DNA of 64,000 nucleotides from Octopus sinensis (lineage: Eukaryota), in assembly GCF_006345805.1 (NCBI RefSeq), contig NW_021833065.1, forward strand, positions 124,001 through 188,000, written 5' to 3'. Every line of letters starts with the position of its first letter. Position 1 is the stretch's first letter. The position numbers were made by a program, and so were the translations under genes. Below the pieces are notes generated by a model. It did not search any database. It was not told the origin of the DNA and saw only the letters and a program-made list of their open reading frames with translations. Below, in pieces: positions 9,926 to 55,334 of the stretch.

Positions 9926-10643
9926 TATATCTGAGTGTGTATATATCTCATAGTGTGTATCTTTCCGTGTTAGGTATGTTATTAAATACATACACATCTG
10001 CACTTACATATACATATGTAATAGTACATTATTAAACATGTACACACATTTACATATACATATACATATACATATGTGATGACTCATGCCGGTGTGTAAG
10101 TGTATGAGTGTGTATATGTCTCATAGTGTGTGTGTGTGTCTATCCATGTCAGGTGTATATATATGTGGTGTGTGTGGGTGTGTAGGTATGGGTGTATGCG
10201 TATGTATATAGCATGAATAGATCTGTACATGTGTGGGTCAGTCTCTGTCTGTCTCCATCTATTTTCTCTTTTGTGTGTTTATGCATGCCTTTGAATATAT
10301 ATTTTACACATGTGTGTCTGTATATGTGTGTATATATCTAAAAATATAGAATAATTATAAAATAAACTCAAATTAGGCAATCAACTTTTTATACATTCTC
10401 AAACAGTTATAAATCCTAGTTAAAATGCATATATATTAATATATATCAACATATATGAGAATTTAAAAAAATATAAATATATATAAATATACATAAAAAT
10501 ACATGTAAATAGAGTCCATGTAGGATGTAAATGGAAACAAATATGAGAAAAAGAGAACTGATAAAAATTTGTTTTCATACTAAAATTAAGAGTGGTTCAA
10601 AGTTTCAGTTAACAGATTCATAAAATTCAATCTGATTGTTTTT

Positions 10644-13600
10644 AGGGACCTTCTCTTTGTGGCTGGTGACTTCAATGGGCATGTTGGACGATGTGCTGGG
10701 GGCTTCCATGGCGTGCATGGAGGCTACGGTTATGGTTCCCGCAACGAGGAGGGAACCAGGCTGCTGGAGTTCTGCGATGCGAATAGTCTTATGGTTTGCA
10801 ACACTAACTTCAGGAAACCGACAAGCCACCTGGTCACCTACCGATCGGGCCGGCATACTAGCCAAATCGACTACATCCTTGCCAGAAAAAGGGAAAAATG
10901 GCTGCTTATAAATGCCAAAACCTTCCCAGGCGAAGAATGCACCCCACAACATAGACTGGTAGTTAGTGACTTTAGGATCAGGACTAAGAGGGCGACTAGA
11001 AGATGACCAACATGGAGAAGAAGGGTCTGGATGCTTAAGGACCCTGCGAATGGACAGAGATTTAGAGACATGTTACTTGAAGCCTTTGACGAAATGAAGG
11101 GGGTATAGCTACGCAGGGGGTAGAAGACAACTGGACGCTTCTGAGGGACAACCTGCTGAAAGCCACTGACCAGATCTGTGGCTAGTGCAAAGTCCCCTTA
11201 AGACCCAAAATAACGTGGTGGTGGAACAATATTGTTGACAGGGCTATTAGACAAAAGAAACAGGCTTGGAAGGCCTGGAAGAACGGTGGTAGCAGGGAAG
11301 TGTATCAGACTGCCAGAAGGGAAGCTAGGAGACAGGTCTATCTAGCCAGAGGGGAGGCAGATAAGGAAAAATTTGCCAATGTCCTGCGCCGTGAGAATGA
11401 AAGACTTGAGGTATTTCGTGTTGCAAGACAGTGTGTGAGAGAGAATCGTGACGTAGTAGGAGAGAAATGTGTTCGCAAGGATAACGGTTCACTTGCGCTA
11501 AATGAGGATGCAAAGAGAGAGGCTTGGAGACGCCACTATGAAAGGTTGCTGAATGAGGAAAATGAATGGGATAAAGAGAGTCTGCCGAATGTCGACCCAA
11601 CAGAGGGACCAGTAATCCAAGTTAACAGTTCCTTAGTAGATAAGGCAATTAGAAGCATGAAAACAGGGAAAGCCCCAGGCCCATCAGGAATTACTGCAGA
11701 GATGCTCAAAATATCTGGTAGTGTCGGCTATAGCTTAGTCACCCGTATAGTTAACCAGGTGATACACGAAGGAGTCATACCCAATGACTGGTGTAGCAGC
11801 ATAATAGTCAACTGCTACAAAGGTAAAGGCGACGCCCTAGATACAAATAACTACAGGGGCATCAAGCTGCTGGATCAGGTAATGAAGGTTACGGAGAGGG
11901 TTATAGCCCAATTAATTAGAGAGAGAGTTAGCTTAGATGATATGCAGTTTGGGTTCGTGCCAGGGAAAGTACTACTGATGCTATATTCCTGGTAAGACAG
12001 CTGCAGGAGAAATACCTAGCCAAAGATAAGCCCTTGTACCTGGCTTTTGTTGACTTGGAGAAAGCCTTTGACAGGGTCCCCCGATCCCTTATCTGGTGGT
12101 CAATGAGGAAACTAGGGATAGATGAATGGCTGGTGAGAGCTGTGCAAGCCATGTACAGGGATGCGGTAAGTAAGGTTAGGGTTGGCAACATGTACACAGA
12201 AGAATTCAAAGTAGAGGTTGGGGTCCACCAAGGTTCAGTCCTCAGTCCCCTCCTATTTATCATAGTCCTCCAAGCAATAACGGAGGAATTCAAGACAGGA
12301 TGCCCCTGGGAGCTCCTCTATGCTGATGACCTTGCTCTAATTGCTGAGTCACTATCAGAACTGGAGGAGAAGTTTCAGGTGTGGAAACAAGGATTAGAAT
12401 CGAAGGGCCTTAGAATCAACCTATCCAAAACCAAAGTCCTAATAAGTAGGAAGGTGGACCAATCACAAACGACTTCAGGTAGATGGCCCTGCTCGACCTG
12501 TAAAAAAGGTGTAGGTAGAAACTCTATAAGGTGCACCAAGTGTAAGCTATGGACACATAAGAGGTGCAGCAATGTCAAAGGAAGGCTAACTAGGAAAATA
12601 GTTTTTGTCTGTGGCAGATGCTCAGGAGCAATAAACACTGGAAATGTGCAGAGACCAACTTCTACCACGTTCCAGGGAGACAAACTAGAAGTAGTTGATG
12701 CTTCCGCTACCTAGGAGACCAAGTCAGTAGCGGGGGTGGGTGTGCTGAAAGTGTTTCTGCTAGAGTAAGAATAGCCTGGGCAAAGTTTAGAGAGCTCTTA
12801 CCCCTGCTGGTGACAAAAGGCCTCTCGCTCAGAGTAAAAGGCAGACTGTATGATGCATGTGTACGTACAGCCATGCTACATGGTAGTGAAACATGGACCG
12901 TGACTGCTGAGGATATGCGTAAGCTCGCAAGAAATGAAGCCAGTATGCTCCGATGGATGTGTAATGTCAGTGTTCATAATCGTCAGAGTGTAAGTACCTT
13001 GAGAGAAAAGTTGAACCTAAGAAGCGTCAGTTGTGGTGTGCAAGAGAGACGGCTGCGCTGGTATGGTCATGTGACGAGAATGGCTGAAGATAGTTGTGTG
13101 CTAAAGTGCTACACCCTAGCAGTTGAGGGAACCTGTGGAAGAGGTAGACCCAGGAAAACCTGGGACGAGGTGGTGAAGCACGACCTTCGAACTTTAGGTC
13201 TCACTAAGGAAATGACTAGAGACCGAGACCTATGGAAGTATGCTGTGCGTGAGAAGACCAGGCAAGACTAGTCAGGCCATAACCCGTGGCCCCTACCTGG
13301 GACGTAGTCAGTCATCCACCTGTGCATACCTTCCTTCTTGTGACACTTGTGAAGACCTGTTGAGGCAAGTGAAAATCAAATCAAATCAATCAAATCAAAA
13401 TAGATGAACATCAATGGAATTTGTATCTTTGTGGTACCAGTGACGGTGGCACACAAGAAAACCATCCGAACGTGGCCGTAGCCAGTACCGCATCGACTGG
13501 CCTCCGTGCTGTGGGCACGTAACAAACACCATCCAATCGTGGCCGTTCGCCAGCCTCATCTGGCACCTGTGTCGGTGGCACATAAAAACACCATCCGAAG

Positions 13601-26394: not shown

Positions 26395-28554
26395 ATCATC
26401 ATCATTATCAGCATCGTTTAATGTCCGCTTTCCATGCTAGCATGGGTTGGATGATTTGACTGAGGTCTGGTGACCCAGATGGCTGCACCACACTCCAATC
26501 TGATCTGGCAGAGTTTCTACAGCTGGATGCCCTTCCTAACGCCAACCACTCCAAGAGTGCAGTGGGTGCTTTTATGTGCCACTGACATGAGGGCCAGTCA
26601 GGCAGTACTGGCAACAGTCACGCTCAAATGGTGCTTTTTATGTGCCATCTGCACAGGGGCCAGTCCAGCGGCATTGGCAATGACCTCGCTTGAATATTTT
26701 TTCTCGTGCCAGTAAGGCAACGCAGGTAACAATCACGCTCGAATGGTGTTTTTTACATGCCACTGGCATGGAGGCCAGCTTGTTGCTCTGGCAATGGTCA
26801 CACTCATATGGTACTCTTAGCGCTGCACTAGCACGGATGCCAGTCATTGAATTTGATTTCGCTTTCGATTTTGATTTCACTTGCCTCAACAGGTCTTTGC
26901 AAGCAGAGTTTAGTGTCCAATGAAGGAAAGGTATGCATATGTGGGCTGGTTACACCCCTGGCATATACCACAAGGTTATGATCTCACTTGAGCTTGCCGA
27001 GTCTTCTCAAGCACAGCATATTTCCAAAGGTCCCGGTCATTAGTCATTGCCTCGGTGAGACCCAATGTTCGAAGGTCATGCTTCACCACATCACTCCAGG
27101 TCTTCCTGGGTCTACCTCTTCCACAGGTACCCTCAACCACTAGGGTGTGACACACAGCTATCAATATCCATTCTCACCACATGGCCATACCAGCGCAGTT
27201 GTCTCTCTTGCACACCACATCTGATGTTTCTTAGGTCCAACTTTTCTCTCAAGGTACTTACACTCTGTCGAGTATACACACTGACATTACTCATCCATCG
27301 GATCATACTGGCTTCATTCCTTGCGAGTTTATGCATGTCTTCAGCAGTCACAGCCCATGTTTCACTGCCATGTAGCATGGCTTTTCGTACACATGCGTCA
27401 TACAGTCTACCTTTTACTCTGAGCAAGAGGCCCTTTGTCACCAGCAGAGGTAAGAGCTCTCTGAACTTTGCCCAGGCTATTCTTATTCTAGCAACTACAC
27501 TTTCAGTACACCCTCCCCTGCTACTGACTTGGTCACCTATGTAACGGAAGCTTTCAACTACTTCTAGTTTTTCTTCCTGGAATGTGGCGGAAGTTGTTCT
27601 CTGCACATTTTCAGTGTTTATTGCTCCTGAGCATCTGCCACATACAAAAACTATCTTCCCAGTTAGCCTTCCTTTGGTATTGCTGTACCTCTTATGTGTC
27701 CATAGCTTACACTGAGTATATCTTATAGAGTTTTTACCTACGACTTTTCTACAGACTGAGCAGGGCCATCTACCTGAAGGGATTTGCAGTTTGCCAGCCT
27801 TCCTACTTATTAGGACTTTGGTTTTAGCTAGGTTGACTCTAAAGCCCTTCGATTCTAATACTTGTTTCCACACTTGAAACTTCTCTATTTCTGATAGTGA
27901 CTCAGCAATTAGAGCAAGCTCGCCAGCATAGAGGATAGATGCTCCCAGGGGCATCCTGTCTTGAATTCCTCTGTTATTGCCAGGAGGACTATGAGAAATA
28001 GGAGGGGGCTGAGGACTGAACCTTGGTGGACCCCAACCTCTACCCGGAATTCTTCACTGTTTTTGTTGCCAACCCTTACCCTTTCTGACAGCGTCCCTGT
28101 ATATAGCTTGCACAGCTCTCACTAACCATTCATCTATCCCTAGTTTCCTCATTGACCACCAGATAAGGGATTGGGGGACCCTGTCAAAGGCTTTCTCCAT
28201 GTCAACGAATGCCAGGTACAGAGGTTTATCTTTGGCTAGATATTTCTCCTGCAGCTGTCTTACCAGAAATATAGCATCGGTGGTGCTTTTCCCTGGCACA
28301 AACCCAAACTGCATCTCATCTAAACTGACTCTTTCCCTAATTAGTTGAGCTATGACCCTCTCCATGACCTTTATTACCTGATCCAACAACTTGATACCTC
28401 TGTAATTATTTGTATTTAAAGCATCACCTTTACCTTTGTAGCTGTTGACTATTATGCTGCTACACCAGTCATTGGGTATGACTCCTTCGTGTATCACCTG
28501 GCTAACTATACGGGTGACTAGGTTATAGCCAACACTGCCAGATATTTTGAGCAT
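26395..28554 (-). mobile_element. RTE LINE, 5'-truncated RT plus 3' UTR (same family as 10644-14752)
   Basis: ORFs 28054-28560 and 27133-27954 are close matches to the plus-strand copy; YADD is degraded to YAGE. Confidence 0.95.
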
Positions 28555-29421
28555 ATTCAATAAAGTTGATTAATTTTACAGTGCTCAACACAGAGATTCT
28601 ATAATTCAATGAATGCTATGTCAATTTCTTAGTTTGTATTATAATTGGTATAGTTTTCTGCTGCACCACTTTTATCCTGTTTTTTCAGGCCAGCCTCTTA
28701 GCATTTATGGTTCCATCTACAGTACTATTCCATCACTATGTTATTTTCCATCTGGCTAATATCTTACCCCAATGATAGACTTTGTCTGTAGCTCTTACCA
28801 TGTTGTTTTACACAACCAGAAGGATCGGTCTTAACACTTTTTTCTGTTGGGTACAGGTGTTCTTGATTACAGCCAGGTGCCAGGAGTAGATACTGAAACT
28901 GGTGCAGATAGTTTGGCATTTTTTTTCAGTGATTTGCTCTGAAGGAAGGGGCTATGCCTATAGCTTTCACAAGCCGTCTGAGACAGTGAGATTGATATGT
29001 TTGATGCTTCTTGAACAATTGCAAGAAAAACACATTCAGAGAGAATTCCAGAAAGAAATTTGGAGAAGAACTAAGCATAGTAGTTAGTGTGACTCCTAGA
29101 CATGGCAGACACAACATGAGTGATGAGATGGGGAGAGACTAGTGGGTAGGTGGGCCTGGATAGGTGAGCCTGGATATGTGGGCCTAGCATGCGACCATCC
29201 AGCTCTGAAATGTAAAAGCAACAATAGCTGTTGAAAGGTAAGAGTGAGGAGGCAGAAAGTCTGTGGGTTAGATGTCTTGGTGTGTAAATAATTTGGGATC
29301 TGATGTATGTAAATACACTGCTTTGCAATTCAGAGTGCTTTACACCTCATCCTCATGAAACTAAACATTGGCACATCCCCTTCTCTCCTATGTAGATATG
29401 CCTGATATGTTATATCCAACC

Positions 29422-53119: not shown

Positions 53120-54285
53120 ATTTAAAACATGCAGCTCCACCACATGAAACTCTATAAAGACAGAAGCAAAGGAATTAGTTTCCCAATAGAAAACTGTGTG
53201 AATCATCTCATCATGCACACACAGCACATTATTCTTAAAGATCACAGCCAGTTTTTTTTTCCCCGAACTCCAAAAATAGGTCAATTAACCCCTCTTTTTA
53301 GAAAAGTAACTTTTCTTGACCTATCAGCATTATCAACCTCAAGATGAGAAACTTCATGACAGTAGAGTAATGGATCTGCAGTGTTCCATCATCAGGTGGA
53401 TACACAATACTGAAAGCATGACATATTGCATGTTCCCTCCGTGTAATACTGTAGTCCTTTATTCATCCATATTTAAGTCTGTCATCATGAAAGCTGTGAA
53501 TTTCAGGAAGGAATTCACCACCATTACTGATCTAGATACTGACATCACAATGAGTGCTAGGAAGTTACTGTTATACAACAATAATTCCTACTTGGTGAAA
53601 AAAGCAAGTGACTGTTTATTCAGTCTTCATGAGTCTCTGATTAATTCTTTAACATTGATATCTTCAATAGAGCATTCCCTATCATAATGTACTAGCTATA
53701 ACCACTTTCACTAGTTCTATTTGATTAAAACCCTGACAAACCACAGGTCAATGTCAAGCCAAAAAGAGGACAATAATCTAGTTCAATCTGTCTTATGACT
53801 TAGAGTTTACCATTATTGTAGCCAGATATTTCCTAAATCTAGCAAACCATCATTTCCCATCCACACAAAAATACTGTAAGTTGTTCAATTCAGACAATAT
53901 TAAGGTCACTTAATCCTGTCGACAACATAAATTCCTAAATCAAGTACTACAATCATAATTACACAGCCACTACCTCATTAACCAATCTGTAACTCTTGAA
54001 ATTCTTTTATCTGTTCACTAAGGGGATTGTGACTTTTAAAACCATAATGACTTGAGATAGCATTGAAAAGAATTCAAGTATCACTTACCTCAACAACGCC
54101 ACTCATTCAAGGAAAATTCACATCTCTGTCACAATTTATCTGGATGCTGAAGAACTGGCAGTGTGAAGACCATTCCATACTTGAATAGATTAGGGCACCG
54201 CAGGCTTTGCTTAACTGAAAAGTCTAAAGTTTATCTTATAATCAAACAATACGCAAATGAGTTTAATGAGCAAGTTTAAAAAATT
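53120..54285 (+). mobile_element. Decayed Penelope-like element, a different lineage from 1356-2835
   Basis: ILKDH..INP; LYSSI..KAVNF..ITMSARKLLLYNN..VKK; YFLNL..HHFP..KLFNSDNIKVT*SC; IWMLK and CLTEK remnants of GIY-YIG. Confidence 0.65.
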
Positions 54286-54372
54286 GAACGTAATACACCA
54301 TACAGTTCTATATTTAAGAGATGAGGAATTAGTTACATTTGACAGATATTTGTCCTCATCTTGTATGTTGTT

Positions 54373-54418
54373 AACACAATGTTTCGGTTGATGTACCCTT
54401 CAGCCTTCATCAGGTGTC
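54373..54418 (-). ncRNA. Minimal (PLE-type) hammerhead ribozyme, left arm
   Basis: GACAC-CTGATGA-A-GGCTGA..TCAACC-GAAAC-A-T-T-GTGTT. Confidence 0.8.
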
Positions 54419-54510
54419 TTGGGGAAATTTTGAACCTGGGTACTCATTCCTAAGGTATTTTTTCAATGTTGTTGTTGTTATTATTATTATTATTATTATT
54501 GTTGTTGTTG

Positions 54511-54578
54511 AGGTCACTGCCTGGAATCGAACTTGGAATCTTGGGGTTAGTAGCCTGCGCTCTTAACCACTACGCCAT
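54511..54578 (-). promoter_or_regulatory. tRNA-derived Pol III internal promoter (not a functional tRNA); decayed mirror copy at 54594-54657 (+)
   Basis: A-box TGGCGTAGTGG, anticodon-like loop CTACTAA, B-box GTTCGATTCC; no convincing acceptor stem. Confidence 0.8.
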
Positions 54579-54734
54579 ATGTCCATGGACACATGGCGTA
54601 GTAAAGAGTACAGGCTACTAACCCCAAGATTCCAAGTTTGATTCCAGGCAATGACCTGAACAATAATAATAATAATAACAACAACATTGAAAAAATACCT
54701 TAGGAATGAGAACCCAGGTTCAAAATTTCCCCAA

Positions 54735-54780
54735 GACACCTGATGAAGGCTGGAGGGTACATCAGCCAAAACGTTGTGTT
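54735..54780 (+). ncRNA. Minimal hammerhead ribozyme, right arm (core G12 mutated to A)
   Basis: GACAC-CTGATGA(54740-54746)-A-GGCTG..CAGCC-AAAAC-G-T-T-GTGTT. Confidence 0.75.
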
Positions 54781-55334
54781 AACAACAAACAAGATGAGGA
54801 CAAATATCCGTCAAATATAAATAATGTAATACACCATTTTAAAAAGTGCTCCATTTTAGTTTCTCGTGTATTTGTGTTACAGATAGATGTAATAGATTGT
54901 CACTCCAGTGGCTTATGGAGTTTTCACAACCTGTCACCAGTTCATAGGACAAATGGACACTAGGTGGAAAGATACAATACCTCATTCTGACAGCGGAAAG
55001 AGAGAGAAACTAGGACTCACAGGAATTGCTAAATATACATACGTCATTGCCTCAAATTACTATCCTGCATTTTGTCCAGGTCATTAGAAGGGAGTAGAGG
55101 AAATAAGCTGTGAATGTGCATGGATATACACAAACACCCACGTACATGAATACATAAATATACGTATGCAAAGACTAACTACTTAATATGCTCATAGGCA
55201 CTCAAGAAAACCATATCAAGTTGTCCAGTCCTGAGTGGTCATTGTGAAAAACAATAAACCAAGAAAATGCATAGAACTGCCTGCCAAAAAAAGAATGAAT
55301 AAAGTAAAAACAACAAAGTATAATAATAATAACA

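Follow-up and report, generated by a model that had tools for sequence, protein, structure and literature searches.

A head-to-head pair of Penelope/Poseidon pseudo-LTRs with tRNA-derived heads in Octopus sinensis, and a possible Pol III route to their amplification

Structure of the insertion

The DNA analysed here (the window) is a 64,000-nucleotide (nt) stretch of the Octopus sinensis genome (contig NW_021833065.1, positions 124,001 to 188,000, forward strand), which carries at 54302-54825 a 524-bp insert flanked by exact 12-bp direct repeats, the target-site duplications (TSDs). The insert is a dead head-to-head pair of pseudo-LTRs (pLTRs; LTR, long terminal repeat) from a Penelope/Poseidon retrotransposon, one of the Penelope-like elements (PLEs). 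Its two arms, 54302-54585 on the minus strand and 54586-54825 on the plus strand, meet at 54585/54586 with no spacer and are 86% identical in alignment, linker gaps included. Both arms read outward in the same order, from a tRNA-derived head through an (AAT/AAC)n linker into a body with a hammerhead motif, and the left arm alone continues into a tail (Table 1). The length of the insert, its TSDs, the spacer-less palindrome and the single tailed arm had been proposed in a first-pass annotation made from the sequence, and all were reproduced by alignment.

As both hammerheads are damaged, this copy is dead. Each arm had been thought to carry a different CpG-type lesion; CpG changes are present, but the left hammerhead additionally has a non-CpG break in stem II. 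The earlier observation that no TTTT lies between head and tail holds for the whole sense strand of either arm, the nearest runs of four T lying just outside, at 54283 and 54837.

Table 1. Features of the pLTR pair in the window (positions are those of the window)
Feature	Position	Strand	Supporting observation
Left TSD, 12 bp	54290..54301	+	Exact repeat
PLE tail, 3' extension on one arm only, equal to codons ~43-52 of the element's open reading frame (ORF)	54302..54332	-	Runs in frame into the ORF in L201, L328 and L329
Left arm, decayed copy of the opening 48 Poseidon ORF codons, with one stop	54303..54447	-	Frame matches the N-terminus of the intact relative P0121
Left arm minimal type I hammerhead within the coding frame, with damage in stem II and stub; predicted cut 54378/54377	54373..54418	-	Topology common to relatives
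Left arm (AAT/AAC)n linker; length varies among copies	54469..54509	-	
Left arm tRNA-derived head; A box 54567-54577, B box 54523-54532	54510..54585	-	tRNA-gene alignment; ORF-end loci
Head-to-head junction at a short palindrome marking the pLTR 5' boundary	54578..54593	.	Same joint position, on opposite strands, in organism E RNA reads
Right arm tRNA-derived head; A box 54594-54603 (3-nt loss), B box 54636-54645 (C>T)	54586..54658	+	
Right arm (AAT/AAC)n linker	54659..54685	+	
Right arm, opening 40 codons of the Poseidon ORF without a stop; stops at the internal (tail-less) end point	54706..54825	+	Matches P0121 residues 15-34 at 12 of 20 positions (pairwise E 4e-6)
Right arm minimal type I hammerhead that has lost G12 through CpG decay; predicted cut 54775/54776	54735..54780	+	
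Right TSD, 12 bp	54826..54837	+	Exact repeat

The coding parent element

Searches were made in the 2.72-Gb genome from which the window comes (G000). Several copies have sequence in common upstream of the head, and at one locus (L084) this sequence codes for a GIY-YIG domain that is broken. The head follows about 25 nt after the stop of an ORF for reverse transcriptase (RT) and GIY-YIG in 29 of 30 loci fetched with ORF-end DNA (25 of 26 when the query and three segmental duplicates are set aside). The near-full-length copy L201 reads, in order, as an inverted arm, the tail running into the ORF start, RT, GIY-YIG, stop, head, linker, hammerhead and tail; body and tail are in frame with the ORF in L328 and L329 as well. 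The hammerhead, 3' segment and tail of an arm are the first ~52 codons of this ORF. All ORF copies observed are broken, with RT and GIY-YIG colinear in L201 and others. An intact relative of 847 amino acids (P0121; PF00078, PF28514 and PF26215) matches the family at 54%, has the same hammerhead-encoded peptide at its N-terminus and aligns with the right arm of the window. Atlas clusters combine RVT_1, HTH_animal and GIY-YIG.

The element therefore has a PLE-type RT followed by a C-terminal GIY-YIG domain in a single ORF, and a pLTR that spans the ORF start and holds a hammerhead. A CX2-5CxxC zinc-finger linker between RT and endonuclease is described for Neptune and Nematis (Craig 2021, PMC8557442); it is absent from the translated copies of this element, which by that criterion belongs to Penelope/Poseidon, the class being set by the linker and not by a tree. 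Each arm of the window insertion is a pLTR of an autonomous Penelope/Poseidon element of this genome. This alters the first-pass view of a non-coding element that borrows PLE machinery: the arms hold the start of the element's own ORF, and the RT/GIY-YIG machinery is indeed that of a PLE but does not come from a foreign partner, head, linker, hammerhead and tail all being parts of its own pLTR. The PLE sharing the 3' end that had been sought is the family's own coding element.

Neptune-like PLEs were also considered as a partner and rejected, since none of 93 loci from five families has the same 3' end and the sole match (L124) is a separate insertion of the Poseidon family. At another locus (L197, 2420-2463) the 25 nt between ORF stop and head form an imperfect inverted copy of the 5' end of the head, and the head may itself have been acquired by head-to-head joining of this kind.

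Hammerhead and tRNA-derived head

The Infernal/Rfam comparison suggested for the hammerhead gave no match; neither hammerhead nor tRNA was scored by Rfam, and ARAGORN called no tRNA in the insertion, so that both identifications rest on motif and alignment evidence. Aligned with 13 host tRNA genes from the source genome (seven anticodon classes), the head is identical at 40-49 of 72-74 positions (z 2.7-7.9), the best alignments being to Arg-TCT (49/73) and Cys (48/72), and its anticodon loop is one base off Arg-TCT. These alignments support the proposed tRNA origin, and the head has the A and B boxes of a SINE2-type head (SINE, short interspersed element).

The motif scan found the core, stems I and II and the palindromic 15.2-16.2 stub of a type I minimal hammerhead, a class defined in PMC4209133. 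The same topology lies no more than 1 kb behind the ORF in 18 of the 46 relatives with sufficient flank (from a sample of 87 loci in metagenome and genome contigs) and in none of the reversed controls, with stems that differ yet pair; this shared topology backs the earlier reading of a hammerhead with a palindromic stub. Relatives and family together gave 21 distinct motifs in 24 loci, again with stems that vary but pair, although the scan itself demands pairing. The covariation of stems I and II that had been expected among copies was not found within the family, where all hammerhead columns decay alike; the stems vary and still pair only across relatives. In one Poseidon relative (L302, 745 on the minus strand and 2933 on the plus strand) both inverted arms have G3:C8 in place of the core pair C3:G8, a compensatory change that arose naturally.

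Cleavage by this hammerhead would probably require a dimer or the help of a protein. The predicted cut at codon ~23 would split the ATG from the ORF, and because full-length copies derive from uncut RNA, cleavage is probably dispensable for insertion. Hammerhead cleavage in the Anolis element PAc likewise requires protein and is not needed for insertion (PMC11167929).

Insertion geometry

Among 30 tail-selected loci (the first 30 on contig 1), an inverted body is present in 14 and an inverted head in one, and a TSD of 11-13 bp was called under a strict rule in ten, all at inverted arms and none at single arms. The 3' ends are bimodal, at body positions 143-149 and 174, the tail-less end hence being 25-31 nt short. 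Exactly one tail is present in 40 of 42 head-to-head pairs (several pairs coming from some loci), and either arm may be the short one. PLE insertions are described as having an inverted 5' copy, an optional tail of 30-40 bp, a palindromic junction and a TSD of 8-10 bp (PMC8557442, PMC3846280); the family shows this PLE-type geometry, as had been suggested from the window, with a tail of 25-31 nt. The palindrome of the window is accordingly real but is the usual PLE head-to-head product and no fixed architecture, as arm lengths are free to vary and single arms exist.

A model in which the tailed arm is always made first and then snaps back was rejected, as single tail-less arms with a TSD occur (L003) and junction orientation is independent of the tail; for these reasons two RNA-templated starts fit better. 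In vitro, Anolis Poseidon PAc has two RT start sites, and both strands are cut and extended (PMC11167929). The window insertion is almost certainly a Poseidon pLTR inserted by such two-ended priming. Derived variants common to both arms of one insertion number 15 against ~5 expected (0 of 706 permutations), which does not separate an origin from the same RNA from one in the same source.

Copy number and distribution

An arm search gave 2,057 first-look candidates, of which the 40 that were scored are 95-100% alike. The 27-nt tail has 4,720 exact matches in the genome (reversed control 0), and exact 20-mers gave 4,938 matches for the head against 989 for the ORF end only ~67 nt upstream (controls 0). 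Corrected by the rates of exact matching (tail 15/34, head 24/80, ORF end 18/35), these counts give rough estimates of ~11,000 tails, ~16,000 heads and ~1,900 ORF ends, or about eight short copies to each ORF end. A density sample, with one copy in 17 random 10-kb stretches, fits 10^4 copies, weakly. Copies diverge by 4.2% outside CpG and by 22% at CpG. The thousands of exact motif matches, together with the 11-13-bp TSDs, bear out the proposal of a dispersed high-copy family with independent TSDs.

Of ten loci selected by the head, nine continue into the same body and two are linked to the ORF, while the tenth is lost in a long microsatellite. Parts of the unit are carried by 20 sequencing runs from 12 studies and five related organisms; a sequence search of the PDB and one of a phage collection returned no match.

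Promoter region and transcription

A tRNA-derived A/B-box head and (AAT)n stand in this pLTR where the usual T-rich 3' untranslated region (UTR) and RNA polymerase (Pol) II promoter would be. The non-coding part of the element consists of a 25-nt UTR, the head and (AAT)n, after which come the ATG and, within the first codons, the hammerhead. When 56 head-bearing arms are placed relative to the A box, 31 start at -15 to -1 (with a peak at -14/-13), 16 start inside the head and four upstream in the ORF; the remaining five start at -30 to -16 (judged by eye, the alignment entering an inverted junction), and none between -31 and -65. This distance from start to A box fits a type 2 Pol III promoter.

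Runs of at least four T (T4 runs) on the sense strand are absent from the 2,630 nt of L201 and number four, all private, in 23.7 kb of 17 copies, where dinucleotide shuffles predict 24.6. Such runs thus occur at 0.22 per kb; five Neptune-like families of this genome, with equal T content, have 2.5-4.8 per kb, and 57 relatives have a median of 3.7 per kb, two of these relatives having none in the ORF. None of the units from ORF to hammerhead of 18 relatives is free of T4 runs (range 1-30) or has a B box, and their UTRs are T-rich, with T4 runs in 17 of the 18. Phenylalanine codons of the element are 22% TTT, against 53% T in its other two-fold boxes. The closest protein, P0121, has the same low phenylalanine content as this Poseidon family (2.2%).

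In two raw RNA-seq runs from organism E (X23 and X24), 10,004 of 12.9 M and 7,692 of 12.0 M records fall on the 547-nt stretch (0.06-0.08%), and the reads reproduce both 3' ends and the inverted joint at -14. This signal is passive read-through in host transcripts and says nothing on promoter or cleavage. No spliced joint comparable to the 5' UTR intron of Drosophila virilis Penelope was seen in the 15 examined of 60 joints in organism E, and the indexed sequencing rows hold no RNA record of the unit. Head-to-head copies in host transcripts would form hairpins of ~250 bp, possible substrates for editing or for small RNAs; RNA editing is not shown by the organism E reads, in which A>G and G>A are equally frequent.

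Proposed mechanism and alternatives

At a probability of about 0.65, we favour the view that the pLTRs are driven by Pol III and amplify as a built-in SINE, short Pol III RNAs from the head explaining the 8:1 excess. Pol III would start ~13 nt before the A box, and from a solo or 3' pLTR the RNA would run for ~250-300 nt to the next T run of the flank and would contain the protein-binding and RT-start region. The element's RT/GIY-YIG protein would cut the two strands ~12 nt apart, and each end would prime cDNA synthesis, with one start at the tail end and the other 25-31 nt further in, in the manner of the two-start priming of Anolis Poseidon. The 3' ends of the two cDNAs would then be joined, in many cases at the terminal palindrome, to produce an insertion like that of the window, and the element's own pLTR would thus act as its SINE. 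From a tandem copy the same promoter could read through the T-run-free 2.6-kb unit, so that the mRNA may itself be a Pol III product; this is the least certain step, and we would put the odds of it a little below even. The most far-reaching form of the proposal can be offered only tentatively: an autonomous coding retrotransposon fully transcribed by Pol III from a captured tRNA promoter, its 2.5-kb ORF purged of T-run terminators and its solo pLTRs a SINE born in one step, translated by a cap-independent route in which the hammerhead may take part. Ribozyme-linked cap-independent translation is described for fungal viruses (PMC13725137), and its relevance to this element is speculation.

Several observations weigh against a Pol III origin. 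The chance that a single element has no T4 run is 0.007 under one null but 0.054 under the family's own codon usage, and as all copies have one common master the T-run test has in effect n=1. The closest relative fetched (L219, 3001-4906) has a T4-free 1.9-kb ORF, a T-rich UTR and no tRNA head, so that an ORF poor in T runs may be older than the head, as a pre-adaptation, or have nothing to do with it; the TTC bias recurs in one Neptune family. A TATA-like TATAAG lies at the ORF stop; its distance of 29 nt from the downstream -13 start would allow Pol II to initiate at that point. The pLTR folds into a hairpin at its 5' boundary, just where the starts pile up, and PLEs that lack a tRNA head are likewise reported to have palindromes at this end of the pLTR (PMC3846280), so that the pile-up may not mark a start site; either TATAAG or the hairpin can explain it without Pol III. 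A LINE-like internal promoter (LINE, long interspersed element) is described for Penelope of D. virilis (PMC2377424), and the TATA-like motif at -29 could belong to such a Pol II promoter, yet A and B boxes fill the region. The organism E reads fall equally on both strands, with 66-70% running on into the flanks, and show no piles of read beginnings or ends, including at the hammerhead cut site, from a library type unsuited to revealing them. No complete ORF with a head directly upstream was seen, L329 breaking off in the linker, and a junction-orientation test for second-generation short masters was not significant (6/19 against 1/19, p 0.09). Pol III normally makes no protein-coding messages, and an uncapped Pol III RNA would have to be translated by an unconventional, cap-independent route.

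The chief alternative is an ordinary Pol II Poseidon with a passenger, in which a tRNA pseudogene or SINE head was captured in the 3' UTR, transcription starts from the TATA-like motif or by host read-through, short copies are plain 5' truncations at the start site or hairpin, and the T-run deficit is a habit of the lineage. We regard this as unlikely, though a serious contender: the non-coding part, T-rich in 17 of 18 relatives, is here T4-free and consists only of the A and B boxes and (AAT)n, the starts stand at the spacing suited to a type 2 promoter, and the 8:1 step within 67 nt demands many short transcripts. As solo copies have no upstream TATA, short transcripts could arise from them only through an internal promoter. 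The first-pass model, of an independent non-coding tRNA SINE with a PLE 3' end mobilised in trans by a partner with a different promoter, has in its favour that most copies are short and start at the head, and so need trans mobilisation, and the excess of variants shared between arms is compatible with short masters. It is improbable all the same, being largely refuted by the linkage of head and ORF, since the coding element carries an identical head, linker and body. The head was found with no different body in nine of ten head-selected loci (the tenth being lost in a microsatellite), and no diagnostic variant specific to short copies was established.

A SINE2 is, moreover, non-coding, separate from its autonomous partner and provided with a LINE tail, and this family is not so built, its head lying within a coding PLE and its 3' part being PLE coding sequence. 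Least probable is a retrozyme, in which hammerhead-cut RNA is circularised and copied as tandem units. The hammerhead is of the type found in non-LTR retrozymes, for which a pLTR origin is proposed (bioRxiv 10.64898/2026.07.22.740005), but no tail-to-head tandem array occurs in 60 short-copy loci, which also speaks against the Pol III retrozyme first suggested for the window; the 5' starts of arms are not clustered at the cut site (body position 90), and the organism E reads, from the same unsuited library, show no pile there. The short form works like a SINE, yet the family belongs to Penelope/Poseidon and is a member of neither the SINEs nor the retrozymes.

Other elements in the window and related loci

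The window also holds, at 1400-2895 on the minus strand, a Neptune-like PLE copy truncated at its 5' end, from an abundant family (12,807 first-look candidates), which ends in (TA)n and has a candidate hammerhead-like motif with a UUGA-type core in its 3' region; a long AT-rich inverted repeat adjoins it at ~660-1320. Tandem copies of the same Neptune-like family lie at L061 (1540-8290, minus strand), with open frames of 811 and 923 amino acids and between them a separate frame of 492, which may be a long extra N-terminal region or a second ORF. Frameshifted copies of an RTE-type LINE with a PHD-finger-like segment after the RT occupy 10590-13271 (plus strand) and 27133-28569 (minus strand) of the window. 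Behind another Neptune-like family with a long 3' region, at L118 (4774, plus strand), there is a hammerhead with a 6-nt palindromic stem III.

Comparison with known systems

In the prevailing view, non-LTR retrotransposons rely on Pol II for their transcription and SINEs on Pol III (PMC10886601). An autonomous PLE with a tRNA promoter in its own terminal repeat would blur this division and offer a direct route to the birth of a SINE, the parasite being the terminal repeat of the host element itself. Should the mRNA be made by Pol III, the element would allow two ideas to be tested, a Pol III message of 2.5 kb and a function for PLE hammerheads. Even a conservative reading names the parent of a short-repeat family of more than 10,000 copies that pipelines would probably file as a tRNA SINE.

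Like tRNA SINEs (SINE2), the family has an A/B-box tRNA head and more than 10,000 dispersed copies with TSDs; unlike them, its 3' end comes from the start of a PLE ORF and not from a LINE tail, it has no simple-repeat tail and it forms inverted pairs. The octopus tRNA SINEs OK, OR1 and OR2 were reportedly described by Ohshima and Okada in 1994, and OK or OR1 might be this family. OR2 is described as a CORE SINE (PMC4758252), and octopus repeat papers list PLEs and SINEs without this architecture in the portions available (PMC13282606, PMC8967140, PMC4758252). The full-text literature yielded no autonomous PLE with a tRNA-derived promoter; Repbase, Dfam, SINEBase and subscription journals were outside this scope, and an entry may therefore exist there. 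The novelty claimed for the combination thus holds only in part, as the SINE-like elements Sm-alpha and Sj-alpha of Schistosoma are already described as short repeats in which a type I hammerhead comes after a Pol III-type promoter (PMC6765202). Those elements are described there as non-coding and tandem, with no autonomous partner named in the portion available, whereas the family reported here has a coding PLE and inverted pairs with TSDs.

Short, pLTR-derived, non-autonomous derivatives of PLEs are known as the hammerhead-bearing animal non-LTR retrozymes (PMC7229834; bioRxiv 10.64898/2026.07.22.740005) and as non-autonomous Chlamys PLEs (PMC8557442). No tRNA head is reported in the available portions of these accounts, and neither tandem arrays nor circles were seen here. 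A small-RNA-derived Pol III promoter inside a terminal repeat is shared with TRIMp3 Cassandra, Helenus and Ajax (PMC10886601), which differ in being non-autonomous and of LTR class; that source argues, in the part available, that Pol II must serve the autonomous partners and that the promoter-bearing repeat should be absent from them, whereas here the autonomous element itself holds it.

The closest likeness is to Penelope/Poseidon PLEs such as Penelope of D. virilis, PAc of Anolis (PMC11167929) and the Pen elements of Adineta (PMC3846280). They have in common with the present element a single ORF of RT and C-terminal GIY-YIG without a zinc-finger linker, a pLTR in which the beginning of the ORF and a hammerhead are contained, two RT starts that yield an optional tail, a head-to-head inverted copy with a palindromic junction, and short TSDs; in Anolis PAc, too, the hammerhead marks the beginning of the ORF and the tail belongs to the coding sequence. 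The octopus element differs from them in the T4-free sense strand, in solo pLTRs that start at the head and outnumber ORF ends by ~8:1, and in having (AAT)n and a tRNA-derived head instead of a T-rich UTR. It is this A/B-box head, within the pLTR of a coding element, that is its unusual part.
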